From: Candidatus Saccharibacteria bacterium UBA5145 | GTDB taxonomy: Bacteria; Patescibacteriota; Saccharimonadia; Saccharimonadales; UBA4665 | Assembly (NCBI GenBank): GCA_002413865.1 | Contig: DHXX01000012.1 | Span: 20,241 to 84,240, forward strand | DNA length: 64,000 nt | Reading direction: 5' to 3' | Part shown: piece after piece, positions 535 to 17,781 of the stretch | Position numbering within the stretch: position 1 is the first letter of the stretch | Layout of the letters: each line of letters opens with the position of its first letter | Translations under genes and position numbers: made by a program | The notes under the pieces: generated by a model | Database searches by the model: none | What the model saw: the letters and a program-made list of their open reading frames with translations, nothing else | Told to the model about the DNA's origin: nothing

Positions 535-630
535 ACGGGCGTAACGGAGGTGATTATAGCATGCAATGGCCGAGTAAGCCATTGCGGGATAGTGGGTTGA
601 TGGTAGCTGGAGGGTGGCTCCCGCTCTTCT

Positions 631-707
631 GTCATCCCAGCGCAGGCTGGGACCCAATCAATAATGAATTCTATATCGATTGGATCCCAAATCAAGTTTG
701 GGATGAC
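631..707 (-). repeat. 77-bp GTCATCC-bounded two-hairpin element (type I, inverted copy)
   Basis: The reverse complement aligns almost base for base with 51820-51896, 60264-60341 and 28311-28388. It carries hairpins tcccaaa-cttgat-tttggga and cccagc-NNNN-gctggg. Confidence 0.85.
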
Positions 708-718
708 GGTAGGGGAAC

Positions 719-2243: not shown

Positions 2244-2271
2244 CAAAAGAGCCCTTCGCAGGGAAGGGCTC
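2244..2271 (-). terminator. rho-independent terminator of the pilin operon
   Basis: Stem gagcccttc/gaagggctc (2249-2271), followed on the minus strand by TTTT. Lies 29 nt after the stop of the last pilin gene. Confidence 0.6.
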
Positions 2272-2299
2272 TTGAAGTGATGTTGCTGAAGAACTATTA

Positions 2300-2734
2300 C
2301 TAGCTGATGCCGGTAGTTGATGTCGTAGCCGTGTTGATCACGAAGTGAACGATGATTTGGGCTAGAGCCACGATAATAAGGCCAATGATAGCGTATATTA
2401 AGGTGTTCTTGGCGCCAGACACATTGCCGCTGTCACCACCGGAGGTGATGTACTTGAATCCTCCGTAGATAATCATCAGGACGGCCACGATGCCGACGAT
2501 GATCGAGAATATATTGACTATTTTTGAAGCGATGCCACTGAGATCGGTCGTTCCGCTTGTTCCAGCTGTACCACAATTATCGCCAGCCGTTCCGGTGGCG
2601 TTGTTAACTCCCGTACAAAGGCTGCTCTTGATGGTTGCCGAGGCAACACCGCCCAGAACAGGCACTAACATCGGGACCCCCAGCGTCAAACTAGCGACGG
2701 CGACGAGGAAAAAGCTTTTCATTTTTTTAATCAT
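2300..2734 (-). CDS. T4SS pilin-like protein (VirB2/TrbC-type), paralog 1
   Basis: Signal peptide, Cys pair (C..14..C), then a TM-loop-TM hairpin IVGIVAVLMIIYGGFKYITSGGDSGNVSGAKNTLIYAIIGLIIVALAQIIVHFVIN that is shared by all six paralogs. Confidence 0.75.
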   Translation of the reverse strand: MIKKMKSFFLVAVASLTLGVPMLVPVLGGVASATIKSSLCTGVNNATGTAGDNCGTAGTSGTTDLSGIASKIVNIFSIIVGIVAVLMIIYGGFKYITSGGDSGNVSGAKNTLIYAIIGLIIVALAQIIVHFVINTATTSTTGIS

Positions 2735-2797
2735 ATTTACCTTTCTTATGTTTACTTAATTTATACTACAAAAACACTCTTCAAATCAAGCTGCCAT

Positions 2798-3286
2798 CTA
2801 CTTACATCGTCTATCGCTTGCAGAGATCGCAGGGTTAGAGGTGCAGGCGCCGGTGGCTGAATTAACTACAAAGAAGACAATTGCCTGAGCTAACGCTACC
2901 ACCACTAACCCGACGATAGCGTACACTAGCGTGGTTTTGGCACTAGCTATCTTGCTGGCGTCCCCACCAGAGGTGACATATTTAAACCCACTTACGAGAA
3001 CCATAACTACCGCCGCGACACCAACAATAAACGACAGTATGCGGAGTATTGCGGCGATTATATTCGTAATAGCCGTATTGCTAGCAGATCCACAGCCTTG
3101 CGTACTATCGACGCTGTTTAGGCCGTCACAAGCACTACTTTTTAGCGTCGGGGGTGCTGGGGCGGGTGTAGTGGCGGCAAAACTGGGGGAAATGTTTGGC
3201 ATAGCCGCTACCGGCATAGCAAACAGCAAGCCACTTAGGCCTAGGCTGATTGCTAAAAAGTTCAGTAACTTAGTCTTCATATTCAT
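2798..3286 (-). CDS. T4SS pilin-like protein, paralog 2
   Basis: Signal peptide, Pro/Ala linker, Cys pair, then hairpin FIVGVAAVVMVLVSGFKYVTSGGDASKIASAKTTLVYAIVGLVVVALAQAIVFFVVN. There is an extra C-terminal Cys pair. Confidence 0.75.
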   Translation of the reverse strand: MNMKTKLLNFLAISLGLSGLLFAMPVAAMPNISPSFAATTPAPAPPTLKSSACDGLNSVDSTQGCGSASNTAITNIIAAILRILSFIVGVAAVVMVLVSGFKYVTSGGDASKIASAKTTLVYAIVGLVVVALAQAIVFFVVNSATGACTSNPAISASDRRCK

Positions 3287-3294
3287 TCCTTAAA

Positions 3295-3684
3295 TTAGAT
3301 TTTATTAATTACAAACGCAATGATTGATTGGGCGATTATAACCACGACTATACCGATGACTACGTAGAGCACGCCATCGCGCGCAGACTTCACGCCGTTG
3401 GCGTCGCCATTTGAGGTAATCAAACGGAAGCCGCTAACAACCAGCACAACGGTAGCAGCAATCCCTGCTATGAGGGACAGCATGTTTAAGAGCTCTTTCA
3501 GAACAACGATAACGGGGTTTGTCTTTGCTTTAGTCTGGGCACCAACATCGCCACACACAACCGTAGATTTGGCACTACCACTACATGGCTGGAAAACGTC
3601 TACGGCACTGGCCGTACTGGTGACTACCAACACCGGGAAGAGAAGACTGGCTGCGATTGCTAATGCGTATATAAATTTCTTCAT
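3295..3684 (-). CDS. T4SS pilin-like protein, paralog 3
   Basis: Start taken at MKKFIYAL (ATG 3684). Signal peptide, Cys pair CSGSAKSTVVC, hairpin LIAGIAATVVLVVSGFRLITSNGDANGVKSARDGVLYVVIGIVVVIIAQ. Confidence 0.7.
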   Translation of the reverse strand: MKKFIYALAIAASLLFPVLVVTSTASAVDVFQPCSGSAKSTVVCGDVGAQTKAKTNPVIVVLKELLNMLSLIAGIAATVVLVVSGFRLITSNGDANGVKSARDGVLYVVIGIVVVIIAQSIIAFVINKI

Positions 3685-3688
3685 AATT

Positions 3689-4018
3689 CTATAACCGATT
3701 GAGCACAAATGACACAATTAATTCACCGCTAAGGGCAATCACTAGTCCAGCGGTGGCATAGATAATAGTATTGCGCGCTTTCGCCGCTTGTTGGGGGTTA
3801 CTGCCTTCCGTAATAAGACGCAGGCCTCCCCAGATAACAATAATAACTACGGCCACGACAGCAATTATCCCGAATACTATTTGCAAAATACTTTGTAGGT
3901 TGGCCTGACTGGCCGCAATTGTAGGTAGACCCGTATCACAGTTAGCTGCGTCTAGACACTCCACTTTGGCCGTAGCCGCCACTACGCCAATCATGGCTGG
4001 TGAAAGAAGCGTGATCAT
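3689..4018 (-). CDS. T4SS pilin-like protein, paralog 4 (short)
   Basis: Short hydrophobic leader, Cys pair CLDAANC, hairpin IVFGIIAVVAVVIIVIWGGLRLITEGSNPQQAAKARNTIIYATAGLVIAL. Confidence 0.65.
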   Translation of the reverse strand: MITLLSPAMIGVVAATAKVECLDAANCDTGLPTIAASQANLQSILQIVFGIIAVVAVVIIVIWGGLRLITEGSNPQQAAKARNTIIYATAGLVIALSGELIVSFVLNRL

Positions 4019-4022
4019 AGCT

Positions 4023-4445
4023 TTAATTTATCCTTCCCGCCACAAAAGCAATAATGGCAGCGGCCGAAATGGCGAGAGCCAACCCTATCAGGGCGTTGAC
4101 AATCGTGCGCCTTGCCTGAGCGGTCTTATCGGGCTCTCCTTGGCTCAACATGTATGACACCCCGCCATACATCACGAACGCGACCGCCATTAGGGCCGCT
4201 ACACGAATAAGTATTTCAATGATTGCTGCGACGACAAGCCAGGTGTCGGCCAGGCTTGCCAACAGCGGCGTACACATCGGAAGACCGTTTGGATTGGCCA
4301 CAGAAACCGCTACCGTTGGCTGGAGAGTCCCACTCAAGTACTGGTACCAGTGTGGGAAACTCAAGAAACTAGTCACCCCTTTCGGAAAAGTACAAGCATC
4401 ACCGATCTTAGCGGCGACTACCGCAGCAATTACTGGACTGATCAC
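4023..4445 (-). CDS. T4SS pilin-like protein, paralog 5
   Basis: GTG start overlapping the upstream stop (GTGA). Two Cys residues, then hairpin RVAALMAVAFVMYGGVSYMLSQGEPDKTAQARRTIVNALIGLALAISAAAIIAF. Confidence 0.65.
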   Translation of the reverse strand: MISPVIAAVVAAKIGDACTFPKGVTSFLSFPHWYQYLSGTLQPTVAVSVANPNGLPMCTPLLASLADTWLVVAAIIEILIRVAALMAVAFVMYGGVSYMLSQGEPDKTAQARRTIVNALIGLALAISAAAIIAFVAGRIN

Positions 4446-4870: not shown

Positions 4871-4878
4871 TAACACCA

Positions 4879-4907
4879 TTTATATTGGATATCTCCGTTT
4901 TTTGCAA
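4879..4907 (-). promoter_or_regulatory. candidate sigma70-type promoter of the pilin operon
   Basis: On the minus strand: TTGCAA (4907-4902), 17-nt spacer, TATAAA (4884-4879). This would give a very short or absent leader for the ATG at 4870. Confidence 0.3.
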
Positions 4908-5147
4908 GCCTAAAGCTCTATTTACAACTTTATCTATGGGTGATGGTCGGCCGCGGAATGTAGCCCATCTTACGAGCTGTATTACTTCAAACTATACTTG
5001 GCCGTCTTGCCAAAATCAACCTTGCACCTGATATAGACGGACCAACCAGTCATGCCAAAAACTAATAGGGCGCTCTATTCCTGTTTCTAGAGTCGACTCA
5101 CCCCTTTTATCACCATATATATGGTTATGCCATCGCCGTTAAATCAT

Positions 5148-5177
5148 TTGACCCGAACCTAACCATTAGTGTTTAAT
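5148..5177 (+). promoter_or_regulatory. candidate sigma70-type promoter of the T4SS machinery operon
   Basis: TTGACC (5148-5153), 18-nt spacer, TTTAAT (5172-5177), about 20 nt before the ATG at 5197. Confidence 0.3.
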
Positions 5178-5196
5178 TAAACTAGTTGGCTTATCT

Positions 5197-8100
5197 ATGA
5201 TATTGAAAATGAAAATCCAGAAAATGAAGAGTCGCAGCCTGTTGGTGTTACTGGCTTTGGTGCCCGTATTGTCTACTGTTATAGTCCTCGGCACACCCGT
5301 CCTAGGGTCGCACGCCGCTGCTGCTACGGCTCCACTTCCGGTTGATGCCCGTGTTTTCTCCCGCCAATCCTACCTTATGATGACTTCTCAATGCGGTTGG
5401 ACCCGAGGCGTAGGAGCGATCCGCGCCGTCGCGGAACCCGGAATACCGTTCACTCCAGCCAATGGGTGGATGGCGACTGATCACAACGGGGCGAACATGA
5501 ACAAGTCTGTTGGTAGCGCTTTCAGAAAGTTCATTCCTATGAATGATGATACTGCGAGAATGGATTGCGATAACGCCGAGGGTTGGGTAGACAAAACCCT
5601 CCAAGTTTGGAATTTTAAAGATCCAATAACTTTCTTATGGGCGGTCCGTGATGCCGGTGGGCTGAACTGGAATAAGGACATGGGTGCCTTCTCGACCAAA
5701 GACGGAAGTAACAGCAATGCGGAAAATGCCGCCATTACTAAAGTCGTCCAAAAAACACCTTTTTCGGGGGCAACGAAAGGCCTCGCTCCCGACGAACAGT
5801 ATTACGACTGGCTAGTCAATTTCGAAACACAGTGTTCGGCAACTTTTTCAAATTCACCGGCCGCCACCAGTACCGAGATAAATGGCATAATGAGCGCCCA
5901 AGCCCTTCTTAACGGCACCCCGACGCCCGGTTATTGGCACTTTGATAAAAGAGTTGGCATAGACGTGGATGTTGGCACCGCTTTGATTGCTAGTGACGGT
6001 GGTTCTAACTGCCCTGAGATAGCCAATCATGTTGGTAACCCTATCCTTATCAATGCTTACGCCGCCTACGTTAAGGCCGGTGGTACGGCACCGGCCGTGA
6101 CTGGCGGTGGAGCTGCGGCCACTTCACCCGACTGTGAGTCGCAGGGTGGTGCGTTGGGCTGGGTACTATGCCCAATAATAGATGGTCTAGCCAAGACTAT
6201 TGACGGCCTCTACAGCACCATGATTCAGCCGCTACTAGTGACTAGGCCAATCGACATTTTAGGCAGTAGCAGCGACCCAACGCATACCTATCAAATCTGG
6301 TCTAACTTTCGCATATATGGCAATATTTTCCTGGTAATCGCGCTGCTGGTGATAGTGTTTGGCCAATCAATTGGTGGTGGCATGATCGAGGCCTACACCG
6401 CCAAGAAGGTCTTGCCGCGCCTATTAGTCGCCGCCGTCATGGTCAACCTATCCATTTATCTTGTCGCTTTCGCCGTTGACCTGACGAACATTTTGGGGAA
6501 CGGCCTAGCCACGATTATTAGCGCCCCCTTTGCCCAAACACCGGGGTTCTTCAAACTCAGCATTAGCGGCACGACGGGTGGCATTGGGCTCACCGCCATA
6601 GTAGGTACTGCCTTTTGGGCCGCCATAAGTGCCGGCCCGCTGTGGACGTTCATCTGGACATTCTTCTTGATGCCGGTTTTGCTGACAGTTCTTGCCATTC
6701 TGGTAACGGTAGTCATCCGGCGCGGTTTGATCATCCTGCTCATAATCGCCAGTCCGGTGGCCTTTGCGTTGTACTGTCTCCCCAACACCGAAAAATATTT
6801 CAAAAAGTGGTGGGATTTATTGATAAAAACGCTGCTTGTCTACCCGATTATTGCCGTCATCTTTGCCATCGCCAACATACTTGCTGTCACCATCAATTCG
6901 ACCAGTCAGAGTGGCGGCATCACCGGAGTCGTTGGCCAGTTCGTGAGTGTCGCGGCGCTAGTGGTGCCACTTTTCCTGATTCCGTTCGCTTTCAAGCTTG
7001 CCGGCGGCGTCATCGGTCAGCTGCACGGTGCCCTAGGTGGGATCAGTAAACGCGGAGCGGAAGCCTACAAGGGCAACGCCAACGACCCCAACAGTCGCCG
7101 CAACAGGGCTCGCAATGGTTTGGAAGACCGAAATATACTGAGCCGGGAACGGGGCGTTAGTAGGGTTGGCGGTCTTCAAAAAGCTGGAGTGACGGACAAT
7201 CAATCAGCCCAAACAGCCAGATGGAAGCGTCGGCTGGGACGGACACTCAGCCCGGTTGGCCGAGTGCTCAACTCGGGCGACCTAGAGGCCAAACGCTCGG
7301 CGCTTACCAAGAAACAGGCCGAATTGCGGGAACAAAAAACAGGCTATGGTCCCGACGACAGTGTGCGTGCTTTCTATGCTAAAAAGGGCGACGACGGCCT
7401 CTGGCGCTCATCAACGAGTGGCAAGGTGTTCTCCGACCTCGACGTCCAAAAAGCCAATTCACTCTACGGTCGCGGGGCGGGTTTATCGGCCTCGCAGGCC
7501 GCCATTAACTACGAACTCGGCAAAGCCGGAAACGACTCAGAATACAATAAGTTTCTGGCGGAGACCCCAGCGATGCTGGAGAAGAAAGGCTACAATCATG
7601 ATGAAATCAATGGCATTATGAAGGGTGTTGGTTATGCCAACCAAGCCAAGCGGCTCGACCTCAAGCACTCTTCGTTTAGCAAGAATGAAGATACTGGATT
7701 ATGGAAGCGCAGGATCGACTACGCCACCATGTCCCAGGACGCCGCCGAGAATTTTGGTTCGTACCCGATATCCAACATGAAGGACTCGCCGCTCTTGGCG
7801 CTCAGTGAAGGCCACACCGCGGCCCAAGGCGCCATCGCTGACGCCGCGCTCATTACCGGCACCGACGATGCATCCAATAAAGCCAGGCAGGACGTCTTCG
7901 ACAAAGCCGGCTTTAAGGCAGCCGCTCTGTCGGACGGCACAAAGATGGGCGGTCAAGCTCTGGCGGAACGGACTATCGCAGACAACAAGACGACCGCCAA
8001 GATTCTGGACACCCGCATGCGCCAGGGCCAGGGCATCGGCAGCATCGGCGACGACGGCACCGTTATTCCCAGCGCTCCCGGTATCGGTAGTGGTGCCAAT

Positions 8101-8202
8101 ATCAGTAGCGGGTCCGGCCATGTCGATGCCGCGATCGCCGACTTTGTTAATCAAGTTAACGGCCCACTACACCCACGACCAGGAGGTCCAATTGCCCCAT
8201 AA
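5197..8202 (+). CDS. VirB6/TrbL-like polytopic T4SS membrane protein (1001 aa) with large extra domains
   Basis: Signal peptide, a ~350-aa Cys-containing extracytoplasmic domain, a block of ~7 TM helices (about aa 375-620), then a ~380-aa hydrophilic tail. It is the first gene of the operon that contains PrgI-like and VirB4. Confidence 0.5.
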   Translation: MILKMKIQKMKSRSLLVLLALVPVLSTVIVLGTPVLGSHAAAATAPLPVDARVFSRQSYLMMTSQCGWTRGVGAIRAVAEPGIPFTPANGWMATDHNGANMNKSVGSAFRKFIPMNDDTARMDCDNAEGWVDKTLQVWNFKDPITFLWAVRDAGGLNWNKDMGAFSTKDGSNSNAENAAITKVVQKTPFSGATKGLAPDEQYYDWLVNFETQCSATFSNSPAATSTEINGIMSAQALLNGTPTPGYWHFDKRVGIDVDVGTALIASDGGSNCPEIANHVGNPILINAYAAYVKAGGTAPAVTGGGAAATSPDCESQGGALGWVLCPIIDGLAKTIDGLYSTMIQPLLVTRPIDILGSSSDPTHTYQIWSNFRIYGNIFLVIALLVIVFGQSIGGGMIEAYTAKKVLPRLLVAAVMVNLSIYLVAFAVDLTNILGNGLATIISAPFAQTPGFFKLSISGTTGGIGLTAIVGTAFWAAISAGPLWTFIWTFFLMPVLLTVLAILVTVVIRRGLIILLIIASPVAFALYCLPNTEKYFKKWWDLLIKTLLVYPIIAVIFAIANILAVTINSTSQSGGITGVVGQFVSVAALVVPLFLIPFAFKLAGGVIGQLHGALGGISKRGAEAYKGNANDPNSRRNRARNGLEDRNILSRERGVSRVGGLQKAGVTDNQSAQTARWKRRLGRTLSPVGRVLNSGDLEAKRSALTKKQAELREQKTGYGPDDSVRAFYAKKGDDGLWRSSTSGKVFSDLDVQKANSLYGRGAGLSASQAAINYELGKAGNDSEYNKFLAETPAMLEKKGYNHDEINGIMKGVGYANQAKRLDLKHSSFSKNEDTGLWKRRIDYATMSQDAAENFGSYPISNMKDSPLLALSEGHTAAQGAIADAALITGTDDASNKARQDVFDKAGFKAAALSDGTKMGGQALAERTIADNKTTAKILDTRMRQGQGIGSIGDDGTVIPSAPGIGSGANISSGSGHVDAAIADFVNQVNGPLHPRPGGPIAP

Positions 8203-8249
8203 ACAGTACCTCTCCAGCACGGAGAACTCAGGGTATCTACAGGTGACAC

Positions 8250-9359
8250 ATGGCATCATATAAAGTTATCCAGAATATCGAGGCCGAAGACAAGATTCTT
8301 GGGCCGTTGACGCTGCGGCAATTCATTTTTGCTTTGATCACCGCTTTCTTTCTATATCTCTGTTTTGTGGTGGTTACTAAGGGCGCTCCTTTCATGTTAG
8401 CCATCTTTCTGCCGCCAGCCCTGTTTACGGGCTTTTTTGCGCTGCCGATCGGCAAGGACCAGCCGACCGAGGTGTGGGCTTTGGCCAAGCTGCGCTTCTT
8501 GTTCAAACCGCGCAAGCGCATTTGGGACCAGAGCGGCGTCAAAGAGCTCGTTACTATAACCGTGCCAAAAAGGGTTGAGATAAATCGGACCAATGGGCTC
8601 AGCCAAGTTGAGGTGCAGAGCCGTTTGAGCGCCCTCGCCAACACCATCGATAGCCGGGGCTGGGCCATTAAAAACGTCAATGTTAATTTGTACAGTCAAC
8701 CGAGCCAGCTAACCATGGGGGGTGAATCTGACCGCTTGATCGATCCGTCGACAATGCCGCAAGCGGTACCGGATTATGACGTCCAGGCGTCCGACGATAT
8801 CCTCGACGAGCGCAGCAACCCCATCGCCCAGCAATTCGACCAGATGATCAACGCCTCGAGTCGGGCCCACCATCAACAACTCGTCAACACTATGAACGGC
8901 GTCCGCGCCGAACCGACCGCCCAGGTGCCAGTCGCGCCCGAGAATTACTGGTTCCTAAACCAAGCGCCGACGCCGCCGTCCGACGGGCAAGCCGTCTTTG
9001 CCCAAGCCCAAGTCGTGCAGCCAGGTCTAGTCGACGACGGAGCCACGCCGCCTGCAACCGCCGCCGAAGAGGCTTTATTAGACAACATCAAGGCCCGTAA
9101 TACGACCCAGCAGGTCTACAGCGCCCACATGAAAACGTTGCAACCACTGGGGGCCCAGTCGGCCAACCCAACCCCCGTTAATCAAGCTCCGGCCGTCGCG
9201 CCGGTACTGCCGCCCAAACCGATGACACCCCCTCCCAATCCTGCTATACTGAACTTGGCAAGTAATAACGACTTAAATGTGGCGACTTTGGCGCGGGAAG
9301 CCTACAAAGTAAAGAATCCTCAGTCGCCGCAGGATGAAGTTGTCATTTCACTACGCTAG
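8250..9359 (+). CDS. PrgI-family (VirB3-like) T4SS membrane protein with a long low-complexity tail
   Basis: The N-terminus MASYKVIQNIEAEDKILGPLTLRQFIFALITAFFLYL is the PrgI signature (..EDKI.GPLT.RQ..) followed by two TM helices. The C-terminal ~230 aa are Pro/Ala/Gln-rich. Confidence 0.7.
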   Translation: MASYKVIQNIEAEDKILGPLTLRQFIFALITAFFLYLCFVVVTKGAPFMLAIFLPPALFTGFFALPIGKDQPTEVWALAKLRFLFKPRKRIWDQSGVKELVTITVPKRVEINRTNGLSQVEVQSRLSALANTIDSRGWAIKNVNVNLYSQPSQLTMGGESDRLIDPSTMPQAVPDYDVQASDDILDERSNPIAQQFDQMINASSRAHHQQLVNTMNGVRAEPTAQVPVAPENYWFLNQAPTPPSDGQAVFAQAQVVQPGLVDDGATPPATAAEEALLDNIKARNTTQQVYSAHMKTLQPLGAQSANPTPVNQAPAVAPVLPPKPMTPPPNPAILNLASNNDLNVATLAREAYKVKNPQSPQDEVVISLR

Positions 9360-9405
9360 TCTTAAAAACAGACTGCGTTCTAGTAATAGGGTGGGCTAAA
9401 AACAT

Positions 9406-10341
9406 ATGAATCCGTCAGATCCAAATCAATCCAACCCTTACCCACAAGGGCCAGCCCCTACGCCCGTTTATCCCAACCCCGGGCAACCGGCTCCACCGGC
9501 CCAAGCTTACCCGGCACCGGCCGGCTACGCCGTCCCCGGGGCTACTACTGCGCCCGGGTCGACCGTCTTTGCGGCCGACGCCACCAGCGCCGTCAACGTC
9601 GCCGCCCCGCGCGCCAACCCCAACAGCACCCAAAACGCCCTTCAGATAGCAGAAGTCCGCGATGGTATCGTCATCATGAACGACGGTTCGTTCCGTTGCG
9701 TCGTCATGGTCAAGAGCATCAACTTCGACCTGATGAGCGGACAAGAACAGGAAGCCGTCGAATACAGCTATCAGGGCTTTCTAAACTCCTTGTACTTTCC
9801 GATTCAGATTTTCTTGCGTTCCCAGAAAATAGACCTCCAACCATATATCGCCAAACTCGACAAAATCCGCACCGAACACGACAACATGCTGCTCGCCCTG
9901 CTGATGGAAGACTACATCGGTTACATCGACGCCCTCAGCCAACAGACCAACATTATGGACAAGAAGTTTTATGTCATTATTCCATTCTTCCCGCTGGCCG
10001 ACGTCAAGCAGACGCTCGCCCAGAGCAAAAACTTCTTTAGCGGTATCGCCACGATGTTTAACAACAAAGAACAGCACGTCACGATCCACGAAGCCGACCT
10101 CGAAAACGCCAAAGCCGAACTGCGCAACCGCGTCCAGGCGGTGCTGTCGGGCTTGCTGCAATGCAGCATCCAAGGACTGCCGCTAGACACCCAGGAACTG
10201 ATCGAATTGTATTACGACACCTATAACCCCGACACCGCTACCCGCCAAGAACTCAAAGATTTTAACCAGATGACGGCCGATATCGTCACTAAAGGGCAGG
10301 GGACGGCCACCCAAGCCCACCTGCAGAGGGAATTACAGTAA
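9406..10341 (+). CDS. VirB4 N-terminal-domain protein (separate ORF)
   Basis: Pro-rich ~75-aa N-terminus. The segment IAEVRDGIVIMNDGSFRCVVMVKSINFDLMSGQEQEAVEYSYQGFLNSLYFPIQIF then matches the N-terminal module of Gram-positive VirB4 proteins (Tn916 Orf16 / PrgJ type). Confidence 0.6.
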   Translation: MNPSDPNQSNPYPQGPAPTPVYPNPGQPAPPAQAYPAPAGYAVPGATTAPGSTVFAADATSAVNVAAPRANPNSTQNALQIAEVRDGIVIMNDGSFRCVVMVKSINFDLMSGQEQEAVEYSYQGFLNSLYFPIQIFLRSQKIDLQPYIAKLDKIRTEHDNMLLALLMEDYIGYIDALSQQTNIMDKKFYVIIPFFPLADVKQTLAQSKNFFSGIATMFNNKEQHVTIHEADLENAKAELRNRVQAVLSGLLQCSIQGLPLDTQELIELYYDTYNPDTATRQELKDFNQMTADIVTKGQGTATQAHLQRELQ

Positions 10342-10350
10342 TGTGCTCAC

Positions 10351-10451
10351 AGTTGAAAGTTATAAAGTTCATAAAGTCGAAAGTATTAGGGGTTCAGGCC
10401 AGGTTTATGCAGCAGCTAACTTTCAACTTTCAAACTTTCAAACTTTCAACT
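10351..10451. repeat. family IV palindromic repeat (AGTTGAAAGTTATAAAGTTCATAAAGT type) inside the operon
   Basis: Left arm agttgaaagttataaagttcataaagtcgaaagt and right arm aactttcaactttcaaactttcaaactttcaact form a long imperfect hairpin. The same family occurs at 22724-22802 and 23169-23195. Confidence 0.8.
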
Positions 10452-10474
10452 AGTGCAACCAAAGGGAGCGCCTA

Positions 10475-12397
10475 ATGGCCTTCGGCAAACAACCCGCCCT
10501 CGACCCAGTCGCCATAGCCCAGGCCCAGCGGGCCCGTGAAGAGGTCGAAGTCCAGGCCGCCTTCCAGAAGGGCGTGACCGCCCTGCGTGACTTCATCGCC
10601 CCCAGTTCGCTCGAGTTCAGTAGTACCCACTTCCAGCTCGGTACCCGCTACGCCCGCACTTATTACGTCTACGGCTACCCGCGCCAACTCTACACCGGCT
10701 GGTTGAGCGGCATGGTCAACCTCGACGAAGTCATCGACATGAGCATGTACGTCTACCCGGTCGAAAGCCAAGTCGTGCTCGAGAACTTGCGCAAAAAGGT
10801 CACCCAGCTCGAGGCCGGCATCCAGATCGACGGCGAAAAGGGCCGTATCCGTGACCCGGGCAAACAGGCCGCTATCATCGACGCCGAAGAGATGCGTGAC
10901 AAGTTACAGGTCGGCGAAGAGCGCTTCTTCCGCTTCGGCCTGTACTTTACGGTTTACGCCAACTCGATCGAAGAATTGGAATTTGTCAGTCACAAAATCG
11001 AGTCAATGCTCGGCCAGCAGTTGGTCTATTCCAAACCGGCCACCAGCCAGCAAGAACAGGGCTTCAACAGCACCGTGCCGCAGATGAACGACCAGCTCCA
11101 AATCCGCCGCAACATGAGCACCGGCGCCCTCAGCACCAGCTTCCCGTTCACTAGCGCCGACCTGACCCAAGACACCGGTATTTTGTACGGCATCAACATG
11201 CATAACTCCGGTTTGGTCATCTTCGACCGCTTTAGTCTGGAGAACGGCAACTCGGTCGTCTTCGCCAAGGCTGGGGCCGGCAAGTCGTTCACCGTCAAGC
11301 TCGAGGCCTTGCGCAGTATGATGTTTGGCACCGAGATCATCATCATCGACCCCGAGAACGAGTACCAGCGGATGTGTGAAGCCGTCGGTGGCGCCTATGT
11401 GCGGCTCAGCCTGAGCTCGGCCACCAGAATCAATCCGTTTGACCTGCCGAAAGTGGTCGACTCCGAAGAAGCCGACAACGCCCTGCGCTCCAATTTGATT
11501 ACCCTCCATGGACTGCTACGCCTGATGATGGGTGGCGCCCAAGCCCAAATGCTCGGCGGCGCTAACGTCATGACACCGGCCCTGGCACCGAGCGAAGAAG
11601 CCGACCTCGACGCCGCCCTGATCGAGACCTACGCCAAAGCCGGTATCACCAATGATCCGTTGACCCACACCGGCCTACCGCCGACCATCGCCGACCTCTA
11701 CGATACGTTGCTGCACATGGGCGGTAACGGTCCGCAGCTGGCCCAACGCTTGCGTAAATACACCAGTGGCACGTTCGCCGGCATCTTCAGCCAGCAATCC
11801 AACATCAACATCAACAACCCGTTAGTCGTCTTTAACATCCGTGACCTCGAAGACGAACTGCGTCCCGTCGCCATGTATATCGTCCTCAACTACATTTGGA
11901 ATAAGACCAAAACCGACCAGCGCCGCCGCATCCTAATCGTCGATGAAGCTTGGCAGCTCATGAAGTATGAAGACTCGGCCAATTTCTTGTTCTCGCTGGC
12001 CAAGCGGGCCCGCAAATACAACCTCGGTATTACCACCATCACCCAAGACGTCGAGGACTTTATGGGTTCACGGATGGGCCGGGCGATCGTCGCCAACGCC
12101 AGCATGCAAATCCTGCTCAAACAGTCACCGACGGCGGTCGATCTATTGAGTACCGTCTTTAAGCTAACCAGCGAAGAGAAGAAGCGCCTCAGTCAATTCC
12201 CGGTCGGCCAGGGACTGTTCTTTGCCGGTCAAAACCACGTCCACATCCAAGTCGTGGCCAGCCCGACCGAGACGGGGCTGATCACGACCGACCCGCAGCA
12301 GCTCCAACAGATGAAGACCGCCAACGAGCAAGGCGAGTTCAACCAACCTCAAGGCACTATCGACCTCAGTAATCGCTTGTACCCTGGTAGCGTATAA
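10475..12397 (+). CDS. virB4: VirB4-family T4SS ATPase (middle and ATPase domains)
   Basis: Walker A VVFAKAGAGKSFT, Walker B RRILIVDEAWQLM, and upstream module IAPSSLEFSSTHFQLGTRYARTYYVYGYPRQLYTGWL typical of VirB4/TrsE. RBS AAGGGAG lies 7 nt before the ATG. Confidence 0.85.
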   Translation: MAFGKQPALDPVAIAQAQRAREEVEVQAAFQKGVTALRDFIAPSSLEFSSTHFQLGTRYARTYYVYGYPRQLYTGWLSGMVNLDEVIDMSMYVYPVESQVVLENLRKKVTQLEAGIQIDGEKGRIRDPGKQAAIIDAEEMRDKLQVGEERFFRFGLYFTVYANSIEELEFVSHKIESMLGQQLVYSKPATSQQEQGFNSTVPQMNDQLQIRRNMSTGALSTSFPFTSADLTQDTGILYGINMHNSGLVIFDRFSLENGNSVVFAKAGAGKSFTVKLEALRSMMFGTEIIIIDPENEYQRMCEAVGGAYVRLSLSSATRINPFDLPKVVDSEEADNALRSNLITLHGLLRLMMGGAQAQMLGGANVMTPALAPSEEADLDAALIETYAKAGITNDPLTHTGLPPTIADLYDTLLHMGGNGPQLAQRLRKYTSGTFAGIFSQQSNININNPLVVFNIRDLEDELRPVAMYIVLNYIWNKTKTDQRRRILIVDEAWQLMKYEDSANFLFSLAKRARKYNLGITTITQDVEDFMGSRMGRAIVANASMQILLKQSPTAVDLLSTVFKLTSEEKKRLSQFPVGQGLFFAGQNHVHIQVVASPTETGLITTDPQQLQQMKTANEQGEFNQPQGTIDLSNRLYPGSV

Positions 12398-12429
12398 TAA
12401 GTTTTGTAATAATGTGGAAATAAACAGTT

Positions 12430-15372
12430 ATGGGCGAACCAGCCTTCAATTTACCCGAGGATGATCGACCGGATATCCGACCAGACCTACCTGGACTCCG
12501 CGCCCTAGAAGGTGGCGGGGAGGGCGATGGTGTACCACGCGGCGAACTCCACTCCGTTAAAGCCGCCGATGATGAATCCGACAACAGCTCTAAAGCTGTT
12601 AGTTCCGGCGGCCTAGCCTCGTCTGAAGCGGGGCTTGGTCTGGCCGCCAAACAACTTGGCAGAGGTTTCACTGGTGGCGCCATCTCAAAAGTAGAGACTG
12701 TCAAAAATCTATTTTGGAGCAGCAAAAACCGACGACGCAGTACCGTTGGCGGGGGGGTAATCGGCGGCCTAGTCGGTATCGGGTTTATGCTGGCCGGTAT
12801 TTCGTCCGGCCCGCTGCAAGCTGTCCATTTGTCCCAGATACTTATGAAGAATTTCCATGGCTCCGAAGAAACCTCGGCTGTTCGCACCCAGGGGCTGTTT
12901 CGGTTTGCGCGGTCCGGGAATGTCGGGGAGACCCGTGTCGGCAAACTTGGCAGCCTAACCTTCGGCAAGACCACGGCCCAACTAAACGATATTGGCATTA
13001 CCTATGAAAGAAGCCCGTTGACGGGCAGCCCTAAAACGGTGACCTTTAATAAGGCCAAAATGGCCGAAAAGTTTCCGGAGCTTAAAAAAATGAACAATAC
13101 CGAAGCCCGCTCCTTTATCGAGAAAACGTTTGATCTTTCGCCTGGAGATCTAAGACAATTTAGCGACGGTATGTACAACGTCAATACCCGGGGCTTCAAC
13201 ATCAGCGCCACGCGGGCCTTAACCGATAAGAGCATGAGCTTGCTCGGCGACGGCAAAATAACAACTGCCGTCAAGTTCCGAGTTTTTAATAAGTTCAATA
13301 ACACTCCGTCACTGCTTCATCCAATCGAGCGCGTAAAAGCCAGCGCCGAGAATACAGCCGGTCACGCCCTTGATGCAAAAAAAGCCGAAGAAGATCGGGC
13401 CAAAGCTAGAGAACCCGCCCCAACCGAAGAAACCGTAAAAGCTAAGGCAAATATAAAGGACAGCCTGAGTGGCTATAAGGGGGCGGCCGCCGGGGCCCTA
13501 CTGGTCACCGCTGGCATGTGTTTAGTGCGCTCGATTGCCGACGATGTCGTTACGGTAAACCAAGCCGCCATTGTAACCCCCGCCGCCATAGAAGCGACTG
13601 ATAAAATAGCGGTCGGGGCCCAGGTCCAAGCGGGGCAGGACGTTAGTATGCCCGCAGTTGGGGCGGTCGTCCAAAACTTCACCAACAACCAGGGTCAGAC
13701 TATCTGGGCCGCCAAAGGTATTCAGGAAACGGCGACTCCGGGTTTAGCGGGCGGGGAAGACATCACTCCGGACTACAAACAAGCCTTCAATAGCAACACC
13801 ACGGCCGATAATATCCGTAGCACCATCGGTGGGGGTGATTTCGGCAAGGTCGCTTGCAGTAAACCCGGCTTAGTTATTCAATTTGCGGCCGGTATTGGAA
13901 TGTTAATTGCCGCTGCCCCGACCGGGGGAGCCACCGCGGCGGCTTATTTCGGGGCCAAAGCCGGGGCTGGACTAATTGCGACGGCTGGGGTGTTCTATAT
14001 GCTCGAACAACAGCTCACCAACCTATTTTCGACTGATGCGATCGCTCCAAAAGTAATGAGTGGGCCGATTGGTGGAAACCTACTAGCCTATGGTGCTCGA
14101 GCGGCGGGCGGTATTGAAGCGCGGTCTTCGGGAGGAATAGCGCTAAGCAACCCCGAATCGGCCATGCTGGAGCAACAGCAACAAACTCAGAGCGTCAAGG
14201 ATTTTCAATCCAGGAGCGTCTTCGCTAGGGTATTTGACGTTCACGATTATCGGTCACTGGCGTCGCGGGCCATCGACACGCAAAGCCCGGACCCTGGCCA
14301 AAACCTTAAAAACATGGCCATCGGTCTAATTAGCGTCAATAAGTGGCTACCAACCATATTATCTTCGATACTTCCGCGAGCGCACGCCGCCAGTACGCCT
14401 TATGACTGGGGTTTCCCGCAGTATGGCATCCCGAGCAGTATAGCCAACGATCCCAAATATGAAGACCCCTATGATAACGCTGATAAAGTTGCGGCCATCC
14501 TCGACCACGACACTACCGACAACTACAAAAACCGCGCCCTGGAATGCTTTGGTGCCACACTAGCTAAAGGCGGTGATGGCTGGAACGTTGTCGCTGAAAA
14601 GGAAGTTAATCCTAGCACCGGGGCCTATACCGGTTCAAGCTGTAGTGATACCAGCGATGACAGCTGGAAAAGGATTATGTTGTTTGTTTTCGATACCCGT
14701 ACTATGGACGCCATCTCTTGTTATCACGGTGACGACGACCAAGCCTGCAGCGATGTCGGCTTTGGTTCTCCGGCCGCAACGACTCCGGGCAGCGGGGGTG
14801 GCGGCTCGACTTCTGGGCCGGTCGCGGAAGGCACGAATTCCCAGCTGGCTCAAAAAATTCTCGACTACAAAAAAACCGGGCAGTATTCTTGCGACAACCC
14901 CGGGGACTGCGCGGACCTGCAAAAAGTAGTCGCCGGACATACGTTGTCGGGTAGCCAAGGCTGCACCGCCCAGACGCTCGACACACATGTTTTGCAGCTG
15001 ATGCTCTACGCCATAGAAGTCGGCAAGTTTAAGATTGGCACTTACTCGTTGTGTGGCGACCATAGCCATGACGGTGCGCACGGCCACTCCGGCGGCTATG
15101 CCGTTGATATTAGTTCTGTCAATGGAGTCGGCGTCAATCAAAATAGCACTCAAGCCAAAACTAATACTCTAGCGCTGGACAAGTTCTTAAATGCTCTACC
15201 AGCCACTCTGACATTGAGCCAGCAAATATCTTACGGCTATGGTAACCACTTCGACGCGGATTTGGCAGCCACCCAGCAGTATGGTAGTAAATTGTGCACC
15301 ACTAGCTGTGTCAGCATCTATACGTTGGGCGTGGAATCGGAACACGAGAATCACATCCATGCCGGCTATTAA
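12430..15372 (+). CDS. T4SS-associated membrane protein with C-terminal LAS-type (M15-like) zinc peptidase domain
   Basis: Disordered N-terminus and several TM segments (GGVIGGLVGIGFMLAGI, GAAAGALLVTAGMCLV, LVIQFAAGIGMLIAAAP...GLIATAGVFYML), then a Gly/Ser linker. C-terminal H-x6-D (HSGGYAVD) and H-x-H (HIH) motifs. Confidence 0.6.
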   Translation: MGEPAFNLPEDDRPDIRPDLPGLRALEGGGEGDGVPRGELHSVKAADDESDNSSKAVSSGGLASSEAGLGLAAKQLGRGFTGGAISKVETVKNLFWSSKNRRRSTVGGGVIGGLVGIGFMLAGISSGPLQAVHLSQILMKNFHGSEETSAVRTQGLFRFARSGNVGETRVGKLGSLTFGKTTAQLNDIGITYERSPLTGSPKTVTFNKAKMAEKFPELKKMNNTEARSFIEKTFDLSPGDLRQFSDGMYNVNTRGFNISATRALTDKSMSLLGDGKITTAVKFRVFNKFNNTPSLLHPIERVKASAENTAGHALDAKKAEEDRAKAREPAPTEETVKAKANIKDSLSGYKGAAAGALLVTAGMCLVRSIADDVVTVNQAAIVTPAAIEATDKIAVGAQVQAGQDVSMPAVGAVVQNFTNNQGQTIWAAKGIQETATPGLAGGEDITPDYKQAFNSNTTADNIRSTIGGGDFGKVACSKPGLVIQFAAGIGMLIAAAPTGGATAAAYFGAKAGAGLIATAGVFYMLEQQLTNLFSTDAIAPKVMSGPIGGNLLAYGARAAGGIEARSSGGIALSNPESAMLEQQQQTQSVKDFQSRSVFARVFDVHDYRSLASRAIDTQSPDPGQNLKNMAIGLISVNKWLPTILSSILPRAHAASTPYDWGFPQYGIPSSIANDPKYEDPYDNADKVAAILDHDTTDNYKNRALECFGATLAKGGDGWNVVAEKEVNPSTGAYTGSSCSDTSDDSWKRIMLFVFDTRTMDAISCYHGDDDQACSDVGFGSPAATTPGSGGGGSTSGPVAEGTNSQLAQKILDYKKTGQYSCDNPGDCADLQKVVAGHTLSGSQGCTAQTLDTHVLQLMLYAIEVGKFKIGTYSLCGDHSHDGAHGHSGGYAVDISSVNGVGVNQNSTQAKTNTLALDKFLNALPATLTLSQQISYGYGNHFDADLAATQQYGSKLCTTSCVSIYTLGVESEHENHIHAGY

Positions 15373-16411
15373 GATTAAACCGATTGGCGGCCAACGCTCC
15401 TGGTTCCTCGCAATAAGTGTCTTGGTTTTGTTGGTGTCGCCTTCGTTGGTCAACGCCCAAGCTTTGACCGGAGCTCAAACCCAAGTCCTTCAAGAGGGCA
15501 TACTCTTCTTTGACACCGAAGTCGCCGGTAGCGCTACTAGCAATAGCGGAACCTCGTCGTGTGCTTTGGCCACCTTACCGGCTATCAGTGACGCTAGCCA
15601 AGTGGCGAGCGCGATTGATAAATTTGTGCAGGATAATGGCGGCAAAGGCTCGCCGTTCGATGGCCTGGGTAGCCACATCGTAGCCGGTTCGCAGCGGGCC
15701 GGAGTCAATCCATTCTTAGTAGCGGCCCAAGCCCTAAAAGAGAGTAGCTTTGGTGTCCATATACCGCCGGGATCTTTTAACGCCTTTGGTCGTTCCGCCA
15801 CCACTGGTCAACCGGCGGTCCAACTCGCTGGTCGGTCGTGGTATAAGTGGTCGTCTTGGGCAGCTAGCGTCGATAGTGCGGACGACGAGCAAAGCCTGAT
15901 AAAATCCGTCTATATCGATGCCGGCTTGATACAAATTATCGACTTAGTTAGCAAGTATGCACCGGCTTCAGACGGTAATAATCCGACTAACTACGCGAAA
16001 CAAATAACCGGCTGGATGCAAGAAATGGCCGCCAATGCCGGCACAGCCGTCGACTGCGGCCAAGGGTCGACCGGTGGGGGCGCGTCAGCACCAGGTAGTC
16101 CAACCGGCAACGCCGCGATCGGCAAGCAACTAGCGGCGGCCAATGGCTGGGGTGATGGCACCCAATGGCAGTGCTTGTATACTCTCTGGCAACATGAATC
16201 GGGCTGGAATGAAAAAGCAGGGAATCCTAGTTCCGGCGCCTATGGCATACCCCAGTCACTACCAGCCAGTAAAATGGCCTCGGCGGGCAGTGATTATAGA
16301 ACAAATCCGGCCACACAAATCAAATGGGGGTTAAGCTATATACAAGGCCGCTACCAAAACCCCTGTAACGCTTGGGCGCTGTGGCAAAGCCGTAATCCGC
16401 ACTGGTATTAA
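15359..16411 (+). CDS. secreted two-domain peptidoglycan hydrolase (GH73 glucosaminidase-like plus lysozyme-like transglycosylase domain)
   Basis: Start taken at MPAIKIK (ATG 15359, 14-nt overlap with the upstream gene). Signal peptide ends SLVNAQA. Motifs VAAQALKESSFG...NAFG and C-terminal LWQHESGWNEKAGNPSSGAYGIPQSLP...QIKWGLSYIQGRY. Confidence 0.65.
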   Translation: MPAIKIKPIGGQRSWFLAISVLVLLVSPSLVNAQALTGAQTQVLQEGILFFDTEVAGSATSNSGTSSCALATLPAISDASQVASAIDKFVQDNGGKGSPFDGLGSHIVAGSQRAGVNPFLVAAQALKESSFGVHIPPGSFNAFGRSATTGQPAVQLAGRSWYKWSSWAASVDSADDEQSLIKSVYIDAGLIQIIDLVSKYAPASDGNNPTNYAKQITGWMQEMAANAGTAVDCGQGSTGGGASAPGSPTGNAAIGKQLAAANGWGDGTQWQCLYTLWQHESGWNEKAGNPSSGAYGIPQSLPASKMASAGSDYRTNPATQIKWGLSYIQGRYQNPCNAWALWQSRNPHWY

Positions 16412-16413
16412 TT

Positions 16414-17781
16414 ATGAATAAGAAACAACTAACCATTTTTGTCTCCGTAGCTACTGTCATCATAGTGATGGCGGTGACACTGTTTAACCACCACGGTACC
16501 TCGTTTTTAAAACCGTCAGGCAATCGAACCCTCTATGCTAGCCAAATAATCGGTCGTAATGTCCAGTTCCCAAATTTAATCGATAATAATACTCTGGAAT
16601 TCTTCACCGGCAGCTCATTTGCGACCATCGATCTCCGAACTTCACAAACCAAAACCTTTACGCCGGAATTCAACCTACCGAACGTTATTGATGTCGTGTG
16701 GAGCAAACAGCAGGTCTTGTTCGAGGTCGGACCTGTTTCCGCCCAGGATGATCTCTATGCCCAAGCCGACCCATCCGCCCAACAGGGGGCCAACTCTTGG
16801 TGGTTGTGGAGCCCAGGACTTAGCCAACCGCAGCAAGTAACTGGTGGGCTGGACGGCACCGTCAATCAAGCTGTTTGGAGCTCAGATGGAAAAGCGATCA
16901 TCGCTCTCACCCAACTCGGCACAGCCGCTAAGCAAACGATTGAGCACCTCAACCCGGCTTCGCTGGCCGTGACTAATAAATTCGCGGTTAGTAATTCCAG
17001 CTTGGTTGGCGATACCGCCCAAGGAGTTTTGGCCCATCAAGACGCCAACTTGGTAGTTTGGAAAGACGGCCAGCGGACGGTTCTGCCAATAACCGCCAAC
17101 ACGACCCGCCAACCCGTCGTCACCGCCGATCACAACGCGGTCATCTACGAAAACAATGCCGCGGAGCTTGACCCAAAAACCAACTCCACCGCCCACGCCG
17201 ATTTGTACATATACGATCTGGCGCTACACAAATCTTATCAATTGCTAAGCGCCGCCCAAAATACCAATAATTACACGACCTTCCAGAAGGGCATTTTAGC
17301 TCTGCCCGCCCCAGCCGATAACCTCAGTCCAGCCCAGTCGAGTACAGCAACGGCCCGCCTGACCACTGGGTCGGCCAGCAAGCAGACGGCCTATAGCTTG
17401 ACAGTGGCCGATCAAGACCTCCAATATATTGGACAGTTGCGCAGCGCCTGGGATATCTCCGGCAATTCCGCGACCGCCTTTGCCACGACCAATACCAATA
17501 ATGATTTAGTGCTCGTTAGTACAAATAAGTCCGTTCAATCTCAAGTCTCGCCTTACCGAGTAGTGTTTGTGGAAAATCCAACCGCCACAGTAACCGTTAA
17601 CGGCTCAGCTATCTACTACCTAGACTACAACGTGGCGACCAATGGTTTAAAGATATTTATCAATAATCCAACCGCCGACGCGCAAGCCGATCGAACCGCA
17701 CTACTAAACAACCTGACCGACTCACTACATGACCCCAACCAGGTCCAAAAAGAGTGGCAAACCAACCAGAATACCGAATAA
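16414..17781 (+). CDS. membrane-anchored beta-rich protein of unknown function (last gene of the T4SS operon)
   Basis: N-terminal TM segment LTIFVSVATVIIVMAVTLF. Repeated blade-like segments (VVWSKQQVLFEV, AVWSSDGKAIIAL, LVVWKDGQRTV, ADLYIYDL) suggest a TolB-like propeller. The start lies 2 nt after the upstream stop. Confidence 0.4.
   Translation: MNKKQLTIFVSVATVIIVMAVTLFNHHGTSFLKPSGNRTLYASQIIGRNVQFPNLIDNNTLEFFTGSSFATIDLRTSQTKTFTPEFNLPNVIDVVWSKQQVLFEVGPVSAQDDLYAQADPSAQQGANSWWLWSPGLSQPQQVTGGLDGTVNQAVWSSDGKAIIALTQLGTAAKQTIEHLNPASLAVTNKFAVSNSSLVGDTAQGVLAHQDANLVVWKDGQRTVLPITANTTRQPVVTADHNAVIYENNAAELDPKTNSTAHADLYIYDLALHKSYQLLSAAQNTNNYTTFQKGILALPAPADNLSPAQSSTATARLTTGSASKQTAYSLTVADQDLQYIGQLRSAWDISGNSATAFATTNTNNDLVLVSTNKSVQSQVSPYRVVFVENPTATVTVNGSAIYYLDYNVATNGLKIFINNPTADAQADRTALLNNLTDSLHDPNQVQKEWQTNQNTE

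Follow-up and report, generated by a model that had tools for sequence, protein, structure and literature searches.

A type IV secretion system (T4SS) is a leading candidate route by which ultrasmall Patescibacteria, which cannot make their own nucleotides, obtain resources from their hosts. The closest described system is that of Southlakia epibionticum ML1 (SEML1_0004-0019; Wang 2023, Cell; PMC10633639), where the gene order runs dnaA, dnaN, recF, two exported beta-rich proteins, a lysozyme-like protein, a 1113-aa protein, VirB4, a 293-aa protein at the TrsD position, PrgI, VirB6-like proteins, six pilins, hsp20, comFC and tRNA-Ser. Nearly all genes of the ML1 cluster are essential by transposon sequencing, the six pilins individually so, and Wang et al. 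noted unusual pilins and no recognisable coupling or relaxase protein, suggested a role other than DNA transfer, and proposed that the system "may instead export proteins" (PMC10633639). A 2025 review called it the first T4SS with demonstrated essentiality for the bacterium that bears it (PMC12857230). At the level of the phylum, Quinonero-Coronel et al. (2025, Microb Genom; PMC12102498) described Patescibacteria T4SSs with MPF-FATA ancestry and arrays of 2-11 VirB2 pilins, in which a TrsD homologue, VirB4-associated and essential in ML1, is the most abundant T4SS component near virB4; they counted only 109 relaxase homologues across the phylum, found VirD4 homologues mostly far from virB4 (that of ML1 was not found essential), and proposed an import function. 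Here, we analyzed a 64-kb stretch of the chromosome of Candidatus Saccharibacteria bacterium UBA5145, a member of the Saccharimonadales (Saccharibacteria/TM7, Patescibacteria), hereafter the window. Positions 2300-17781 hold a T4SS-like locus that an initial annotation, made from the letters alone, had read as a domesticated, monoderm-type machine with a non-conjugative job and not as the remnant of an integrative and conjugative element (ICE).

The locus matches SEML1_0004-0019 gene for gene, with the same flanks and the same order. Three differences were found: in ML1 a non-essential NTF2-like protein separates a pair of large VirB6-like proteins, whereas the window has a single VirB6-like gene and lacks an NTF2-like one; in place of the 455-aa protein of the window, ML1 has two exported proteins of ~210-250 aa; and the lysozyme protein of ML1 carries three domains (two lysozyme-like, one Cys protease), while its counterpart in the window is of the GH73+SLT type. 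We then compared the locus with the Patescibacteria clade of PMC12102498 and found every tested feature of that clade: a VirB4 near MPF-FATA (a kinship judged by profile score and identity, not by phylogeny), a separate TrsD, PrgI/VirB3 plus VirB6, a VirB2 pilin array, no relaxase or type IV coupling protein (T4CP) nearby, and proximity to dnaA/dnaN. There was no essential difference, although a trunk protein with swappable modules after virB4 is undescribed in that study. Because of this gene-for-gene match and the membership in the Patescibacteria T4SS class, the locus is an ordinary, complete member of an already-known kind, the chromosomal, non-conjugative T4SS with a pilin array. The non-conjugative reading is correct and not new, being also the published conclusion (PMC12102498, PMC10633639, PMC12857230). 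The locus thus adds nothing conceptually new to the published picture and offers a clean, complete example of it; the modest new content lies in a quantitative conservation gradient and in polymorphic modules after VirB4. Taken together, we consider it likely that the locus is a vertically inherited Patescibacteria-type T4SS, orthologous to SEML1_0004-0019, which arose from monoderm MPF-FATA (CD1110/Tn916-like) conjugation machinery, lost its relaxase, coupling and mobility link, gained an array of six pilins, and serves exchange with a host in which no coupling protein takes part.

The two divergent operons and their gene list, as first read, were confirmed by the open reading frame (ORF) listing and by profile hidden Markov model searches, which matched the pilin, PrgI and VirB4 families: a plus-strand operon of seven genes faces six minus-strand VirB2-type pilin genes (Table 1). 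Packing had been described as tight, with gaps of 50 nt or less apart from one of 133 nt; this holds on the plus strand, where the other gaps are no wider than 47 nt (47, 46, 133, 32, -14 and 2 nt in order), but one of the pilin-gene gaps (75, 8, 4, 4 and -4 nt) is wider than 50 nt. The core-gene flanks were likewise borne out: two tRNA-Ser genes, comFC and hsp20 lie beyond the pilin genes, and recF-dnaN-dnaA lies beyond the plus-strand operon, with 3.1 kb separating its last gene from dnaA. A 356,883-bp metagenomic contig carries an identical copy of the locus.

Table 1. Features of the T4SS locus, by position in the window.
Feature	Position	Strand	Basis
Terminator-like hairpin, end of pilin operon	2247..2273	-	Pattern match only
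Pilin 1, VirB2/TrbC-like, 140 aa	2300..2722 (longest ORF to 2734)	-	PF18895 E 6.7e-16; TrbC E 4.6e-5
Pilin 2, 162 aa	2798..3286	-	PF18895 E 1.2e-11
Pilin 3, 129 aa	3295..3684 (longest ORF to 3717)	-	PF18895 E 3.3e-7; Cys34/Cys44
Pilin 4, 109 aa	3689..4018	-	PF18895 E 2e-11; Cys21/Cys27
Pilin 5, 140 aa	4023..4445	-	PF18895 E 3.1e-7
Pilin 6, 142 aa	4442..4870 (longest ORF to 4879)	-	PF18895 E 4.4e-6, 27.1 bits
Divergent intergenic region	4871..5223	.	353-nt gap between the two operons
Extended VirB6/TrbL-like polytopic membrane protein, 992 aa	5224..8202	+	Precomputed PF19590 TrbL_3; topology
PrgI/VirB3-like protein, 369 aa, long Pro/Gln-rich C-terminal extension	8250..9359	+	PF12666 E 1.1e-10
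TrsD-like protein (VirB4 N-terminal domain as separate gene), 311 aa	9406..10341	+	NCBIfam profiles; precomputed PF26593 TraC-like
Gap with palindromic repeat element, 133 nt	10342..10474	.	Hairpin of repeat units
VirB4 ATPase, 640 aa	10475..12397	+	conju_CD1110 E 1e-106, 358 bits against cut-off 325
Membrane protein, 980 aa: trunk (aa ~100-780), Gly/Ser linker, LAS/VanY-like metallopeptidase module (aa ~796-980)	12430..15372	+	Motifs; family profile
Secreted/anchored bifunctional glycosidase, 350 aa, GH73-like plus SLT/APF-type domain	15359..16411	+	Pfam/NCBIfam
N-terminally anchored beta-rich protein, 455 aa, possibly propeller-like	16414..17781	+	Transmembrane segment aa 3-27; low-confidence model

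To assess conservation quantitatively, we took the best 80 of at least 579 stretches that matched the VirB4 of the locus in a species-representative genome collection; these are labelled Saccharibacteria, Saccharimonadales or Patescibacteria almost throughout. Wherever the contig suffices, the 80 loci show the flanks and order comFC-hsp20-pilins / VirB6-PrgI-TrsD-VirB4-(three or four variable genes) / recF-dnaN-dnaA, which answers the synteny check proposed with the initial annotation. Median identity to the window proteins was 87% for VirB4 (85-94% across the 80 genomes), 73% for DnaA, 71% for TrsD and 70% for DnaN, then 51% for PrgI, 36-50% for the pilins, 31% for VirB6 and 28% for the 980-aa protein, and the glycosidase and the beta-rich protein were mostly undetectable in the related loci by tblastn. 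In all 47 loci that contain the three genes, VirB4 identity exceeded that of both DnaA and DnaN. Conservation therefore drops from the cytoplasmic motor to the surface parts, a gradient that would fit a constant motor with host-facing outer parts. Together, these data demonstrate vertical inheritance, strong purifying selection on the motor and rapid turnover of the extracytoplasmic parts.

VirB4 covers CD1110 profile positions 174-733 and also matches P-loop_TraG (E 6e-28) and AAA_10. Its Walker A motif (AKAGAGKS at aa 264) is the only functional one in 2300-17781, in line with the claim that VirB4 is the sole Walker A protein of the locus; a second such string (GSLTFGKT, in the 980-aa protein) is absent from that protein's family consensus. 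The preceding 311-aa ORF matched the NCBIfam profiles VirB4_plasma (E 5e-6), TrsD (E 4.6e-5, profile positions 23-142) and CD1110 (E 8e-5, positions 9-100), all far under the curated cut-offs. Since the two ORFs cover CD1110 positions 9-100 and 174-733, respectively, they are, as judged by profile coverage, complementary parts of a full-length VirB4. With 23.3 bits against a cut-off of 200 bits for the TrsD/TraD family NF041427, the 311-aa protein falls below the NCBI threshold and is by its score a remote homologue, not a member, of that family; it is the TrsD homologue reported near virB4 in Patescibacteria by Quinonero-Coronel et al. A separate TrsD-like gene is present in 79 of the 80 related loci, most of which have the TrsD stop and the virB4 start overlapping or nearly abutting in different reading frames. 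What had been called a split VirB4 is thus indeed a pair of complementary ORFs, but a conserved TrsD plus VirB4 pair and not a product of decay.

We also considered whether the 133-nt gap marks decay of VirB4 and rejected this, given the split kept in 79/80 loci, the complementary profile coverage and the high conservation of VirB4. An inserted, genome-specific palindromic repeat accounts for the gap: units AAAGTTNAT and AACTTTCA form a long hairpin (RNA fold -38.8 kcal/mol, z -3.15) that matches no Rfam family, and similar palindromic elements are rare among the related loci, with a match in 6/80. Related copies occur in the window at 22722-22802, 23167-23208 and ~56200-56228. The element resembles repetitive extragenic palindromic sequences or miniature inverted-repeat transposable elements (REP/MITE-like), is built of 8-9-nt units (AAAGTTNAT ... 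AACTTTNA) at 10350-10452 and possibly recurs at 58333-58350; its copies are intergenic, and one of them separates the TrsD-like gene from virB4, another dnaA from rnpA.

Mobility functions were then sought among the ORFs of at least 150 aa in the 64-kb window. No T4CP/VirD4/TcpA ATPase, relaxase (MOB), VirB11 or integrase was found among its other large ORFs, which encode glycosyltransferases, a Wzm/Wzt-type ABC exporter, rhamnose-pathway enzymes, an IS1595 transposase, a Fic protein and GlmS; nor was an oriT, and neither VirB7/9/10 (the ComB7/9/10 core) nor CedA/CedB was present. No direct repeats, att repeats included, bracket the locus, and its GC content (0.48-0.57) lies inside the range of the window. 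The initial statements on VirB11, integrase, att-like boundaries and core-like composition therefore held, and that on coupling protein and relaxase holds with the window as its scope. These data bear on the possibility that the locus is the remnant of an ICE or other conjugative element that recently lost its mobility genes or has them outside the window, as a VirB4 of the conjugative CD1110 family, its N-terminal domain on a separate ORF and a repeat-bearing gap ahead of virB4 might suggest. However, 80 genomes have the locus at the same place, between hsp20 and recF-dnaN-dnaA, all ORFs are intact, VirB4 is more conserved than DnaA, the split is conserved and not degenerative, integrase, relaxase, T4CP and att repeat are all missing from a locus of native composition, and the orthologue is essential, so that a remnant is essentially excluded. 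Conversely, the fixed position in 80 loci, the lack of local mobility genes and the essential ML1 orthologue uphold the domesticated, monoderm-type, non-conjugative T4SS of the initial annotation.

Comparison with more distant T4SSs agrees with this. The conjugative MPF-FATA systems of Firmicutes (Tn916/CTn2 CD1110 type, pGO1 TrsD/TrsE, ICEBs1) have a VirB4 of the same family, and pGO1, like the locus, has a separate TrsD-like N-terminal domain. In Tn916 and ICEBs1 the collinear order is VirB3-like protein, VirB4, large membrane protein and cell-wall hydrolase. The locus differs from these systems in having no relaxase, T4CP or integrase, in being chromosomal, origin-proximal and essential, and in having VirB2 pilins, which the Gram-positive systems do not have; its large protein after VirB4 shows no detectable homology to its own VirB6-like family. 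Of the hallmarks of conjugative MPF-FATA systems and ICEs, relaxase plus oriT, coupling ATPase and integrase plus att were absent from the 64-kb window, and the fixed position in 80 genomes is at odds with a patchy distribution.

Helicobacter pylori ComB, archaeal Ced, Bordetella Ptl and Brucella VirB also work without a VirD4-type coupling protein, and two of them, ComB and Ced, are DNA importers. Ced is an archaeal system with CedA/CedB, and the other three belong to diderms and have VirB7/9/10; of their defining components the locus has only the VirB4-type ATPase. DNA uptake of the ComB or Ced kind for natural transformation would nonetheless draw on these T4SS-related importers, which use a VirB4-type ATPase and no VirD4, on comFC adjoining the locus and on a weak match of VirB4 to the CedB P-loop profile (E 2e-15). 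That match reaches 56 bits against a cut-off of 700, the locus has no VirB7/9/10, and in ML1 transformation needs comEC, the deletion of which abolishes competence and leaves viability unaffected (PMC12857230), whereas the T4SS is essential. We regard this explanation as very improbable; of the jobs listed in the initial annotation, exchange with, or uptake from, a host cell is favoured, and ComB-like uptake is weakened by the ML1 data.

We next turned to the pilin array. With 27.1-58.6 bits against Pfam T4SS_pilin PF18895 (gathering score 26.6), each of the six minus-strand ORFs passes the family threshold, which bears out their first assignment as pilin genes. Each has a signal-peptide-like N-terminus and two hydrophobic helices at the C-terminus, and most have an N-terminally exposed loop with two Cys residues, formed by Cys36/Cys50 in pilin 1 (with a signal peptide and two hydrophobic helices) and by Cys53/Cys65 in pilin 2, which has a further Cys pair at its C-terminus. 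Among 33 related loci with complete intervals, 26 have arrays of six genes, and in 15 of the 33 arrays the best-match order is 1-2-3-4-5-6, positions 5 and 6 being the most stable. Exactly two Cys residues, located between signal peptide and hydrophobic core, were found in 108 of the 191 pilin ORFs from the window and these loci, with a spacing of typically 8-13 residues (median 11), which suggests that the mature pilin bears a disulfide-bonded loop in its exposed N-terminal part.

The conservation of array and order, together with the individual essentiality of the six ML1 pilins, favours non-redundant structural roles for the six pilins over simple antigenic-variation cassettes. It also bears on the notion that the system is a pilus for adhesion or contact only, a VirB2-type filament that holds the epibiont on its host and passes no cargo. 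VirB2, VirB3, VirB4 and VirB6 are the set tied to pilus biogenesis, and the pilins vary in their exposed N-terminal regions, most of which have the two-Cys loop, as would befit a host-facing surface. However, type IV pili already serve host adhesion in Saccharibacteria, and six non-redundant, individually essential pilins and a VirB4 of such extreme conservation seem excessive for that purpose, which makes a purely adhesive pilus distinctly unlikely.

Of the two platform components, the PrgI/VirB3-like protein was as first described, with PF12666 spanning aa 6-91 and two transmembrane (TM) segments. The VirB6-like protein has 5-6 TM/hydrophobic segments at aa 360-598, and precomputed matches place PF19590 TrbL_3 on the identical protein and on most of its listed homologues; our fresh Pfam scan, by contrast, yielded no more than a TrbL match (E 0.38, covering profile positions 31-209 of 215), nothing significant was obtained with the whole protein or its sub-regions against Pfam and NCBIfam, and neither the single sequence nor a family profile matched PDB sequences. 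Its assignment to VirB6, made initially from the letters, is retained because of the precomputed TrbL_3 matches, the topology and the published structure-based annotation of the ML1 orthologue.

The genes after virB4 follow a common plan in the related loci: the first always encodes 800-1700 aa, the next a protein of 390-1100 aa, and then comes either one of ~450 aa or two of ~200 aa. The trunk of the first protein, its N-terminal ~780 aa, was detected in 53/63 loci and 1055 representative proteins, and its family has invariant Cys residues. It matched nothing in Pfam or NCBIfam and no PDB sequence or fold, and a Foldseek search of the full 980-aa model against the PDB returned nothing under E 1. 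We considered it as a second VirB6 (ConG/Orf15-like), but hhalign against the VirB6 alignment gave a probability of 0.45% and the idea was dropped; a PHROGs search of the unassigned proteins gave a spurious terminase match only (E 4e-4).

In the AlphaFold2 model of the 980-aa protein (mean predicted local distance difference test score, pLDDT, 74.8), residues of the C-terminal module are mostly above 90 and the linker, aa 780-795, is disordered. The module bears the motifs HxxGxAxD at 886 and HxH at 975, its family profile matches DD-carboxypeptidase structures (E 0.012-0.03), and in the ML1 1113-aa orthologue the corresponding domain is classed as Hedgehog/DD-peptidase (LAS) (PMC10633639). 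Pfam VanY is found in 14 of 64 related C-terminal tails and in 7 of 44 representative homologues, and not on the window protein itself. On these motif and profile matches the terminal module is a putative LAS/VanY-like peptidase, and the initial label of LAS-peptidase protein would apply only to the last ~190 aa.

Tails of other kinds also occur among the 64: besides VanY (14), Pfam matches were to Peptidase_M23 (5), Exo_endo_phos (4) and CHAP (2), with single cases of Alginate_lyase2, Y_phosphatase3, Amidase_2, GDPD, Beta-lactamase2, Lipase_GDSL_2, NlpC/P60, Amidase_5 and PTP-SAK. Of the 28 trunks that could be aligned over their full length to the end, 24 had tails long enough for clustering, and these fell into eight unrelated clusters. 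The closest trunk relative of the window protein (49.6% identity) has a different tail, whereas trunks at 27-29% identity carry the tail family of the window. Because tail type is thus incongruent with trunk relatedness, the pattern points to module shuffling between close relatives.

The second protein is similarly variable, with modules (n=64) matching Phage_lysozyme2 (40), NlpC/P60 (11), CHAP (10), Amidase_3 (8), Peptidase_C39_2 (8), GDSL lipase (8), GH3 (5) and others. In the window it is a glycosidase with an N-terminal hydrophobic segment, an SLT domain (E 6e-10, 39.1 bits against a threshold of 21.3) and a match to AggPromo_Cterm (E 8e-33). It had been called GH73/lysozyme-like; the SLT part is above threshold, but Glucosaminidase PF01832 (E 9e-6) reaches 26.8 bits and not the gathering score of 30.2, and the GH73 domain is likely a divergent one. 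We found no description of module polymorphism on these two proteins in two key papers or in full-text searches. A motor more conserved than DnaA and shuffled hydrolase modules provide handles for experiments on host specificity and mechanism.

The last gene product, the 455-aa protein, was rightly described as anchored and beta-rich, having an N-terminal TM helix and, in a low-confidence model, a beta-rich region. Only four close homologues were found in a search of 5.8 billion clusters, and the AlphaFold2 model from this four-sequence alignment has a mean pLDDT of 49. Foldseek matches were to propellers of TolB and S9 peptidases (E ~1e-6); as their TM-scores reach only 0.2-0.4, a propeller-like fold is tentative. 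Its C-terminal ~80 aa are common to ~200-aa proteins at the same position in other loci (L001, L020, L036, L039, L045, L046, L047, L078 and L080), and such genomes often have two small genes instead of one at the operon end, which suggests gene fusion or fission there.

From these component identities we infer a mechanism in several steps. VirB4, together with its separately encoded TrsD-like N-terminal domain, would dock on a platform of PrgI/VirB3 and the VirB6-like protein at the cytoplasmic membrane. It would then pull Sec-inserted pilins from the membrane into a pilus or tube of several non-redundant pilins, much as pili of F-type systems are built with VirB4/TraC as the sole ATPase. The peptidase module of the trunk protein and the GH73/SLT glycosidase might open the peptidoglycan of the epibiont, and probably that of the host too, allowing the tube to reach or penetrate the host envelope, and material would cross the epibiont-host interface with no coupling protein involved.

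As to the direction of transfer, uptake of host macromolecules (nucleic acids or nucleotides) is tentatively favoured over effector export, by analogy and with appreciable reserve. A cultivated strain of the phylum, OT8, shows tubular structures that seem to penetrate the host and may be T4SS pili, and it takes up host RNA by a route that the authors left unresolved (bioRxiv 10.64898/2026.06.21.733656). The alternative is a machine that exports effectors into or onto the host, resembling bacteria-killing or effector-translocating T4SSs, with the polymorphic hydrolase proteins beside VirB4 among the candidates and nutrients entering by other transporters. It was suggested by Wang 2023 (PMC10633639) and would accord with the variable modules on the two genes after virB4 (VanY, M23, CHAP, EEP, lipase, GDPD, alginate lyase, amidases, Phage_lysozyme2, NlpC/P60 and GH3), of a type incongruent with trunk relatedness, as in polymorphic effectors. 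However, the locus has no coupling protein to recruit cytoplasmic substrates, the hydrolase proteins, with hydrophobic segments at the N-terminus or further inside, look Sec-inserted or anchored rather than translocated by the T4SS, and no translocation signal is known, so that export is rather unlikely.

More speculatively, the trunk protein and the glycosidase could form a polymorphic "envelope drill" coupled to the T4SS, its modules matched to the chemistry of the host envelope and setting host range, while the six-pilin tube would be the conduit for importing host cytoplasmic nucleic acids. The drill modules would include peptidoglycan peptidases and amidases, lipases, phosphodiesterases, an endonuclease/exonuclease/phosphatase (EEP)-type nuclease or phosphatase and alginate lyase. 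We put this forward as a doubtful but conceivable extension of the import reading.

Several points weigh against a coupling-protein-free exchange system importing from the host. The absence of a T4CP holds for the 64-kb window only, and a distant one may exist elsewhere in the genome, as distant VirD4 homologues occur in many Patescibacteria (PMC12102498). The VirB6 identity was not reproduced by the fresh Pfam scan, and no VirB8-like protein was found in the locus. The grounds for preferring import are analogy and circumstantial data, the latter from another lineage, and the hydrolases may act on the epibiont's own wall only.

As for regulation and replication, the promoters of both operons are presumed to lie in the divergent intergenic region, where a single sigma-70-like match (5019-4991, minus strand) is no better than chance. 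The hairpin directly 3' of pilin 1 has an 11-bp stem with six G-C pairs and a T-rich tail; a scan of promoters and terminators gave counts no greater than in shuffles, and a search of 1-24 kb against Rfam found only the two tRNAs. The core operon (5224-17781) is oriented towards dnaA (20901-22283), as in all related loci and ML1, and should be transcribed head-on to a fork leaving the origin, while the pilin operon would be co-directional. Plus-strand GC skew is negative to ~19 kb and positive past ~41 kb, which fits an origin near dnaA; DnaA boxes over the whole window are not above chance in number, with one perfect box at 20449.

Elsewhere in the window, a 42-nt repeat with an internal hairpin (TGTCATCCCAGCG..GCTGGGACCC) flanks the comFC-hsp20 pair (630-671 and 2102-2143, 86% identical), and each tRNA-Ser gene is followed by a similar hairpin sequence (36-104 and 405-473); neither brackets the T4SS locus. 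A 180-aa ORF at 180-722 (+) overlaps an oppositely oriented tRNA-Ser gene (445-534) and is almost certainly spurious. A low-GC island at 30000-41000 (0.38-0.42 against ~0.50-0.57 around it) encodes glycosyltransferases, an epimerase, an amine-oxidase-like protein and a DUF5648 protein, has the Wzm/Wzt-type ABC exporter genes at its left edge (29498-31480), and is probably a horizontally acquired surface-polysaccharide cluster. Amid polysaccharide genes lie a Fic/DOC-family protein (50500-51648) and the IS1595-family transposase (44775-45740); the latter, at a distance of 27 kb from the T4SS, is the sole gene of mobility type found in the window.

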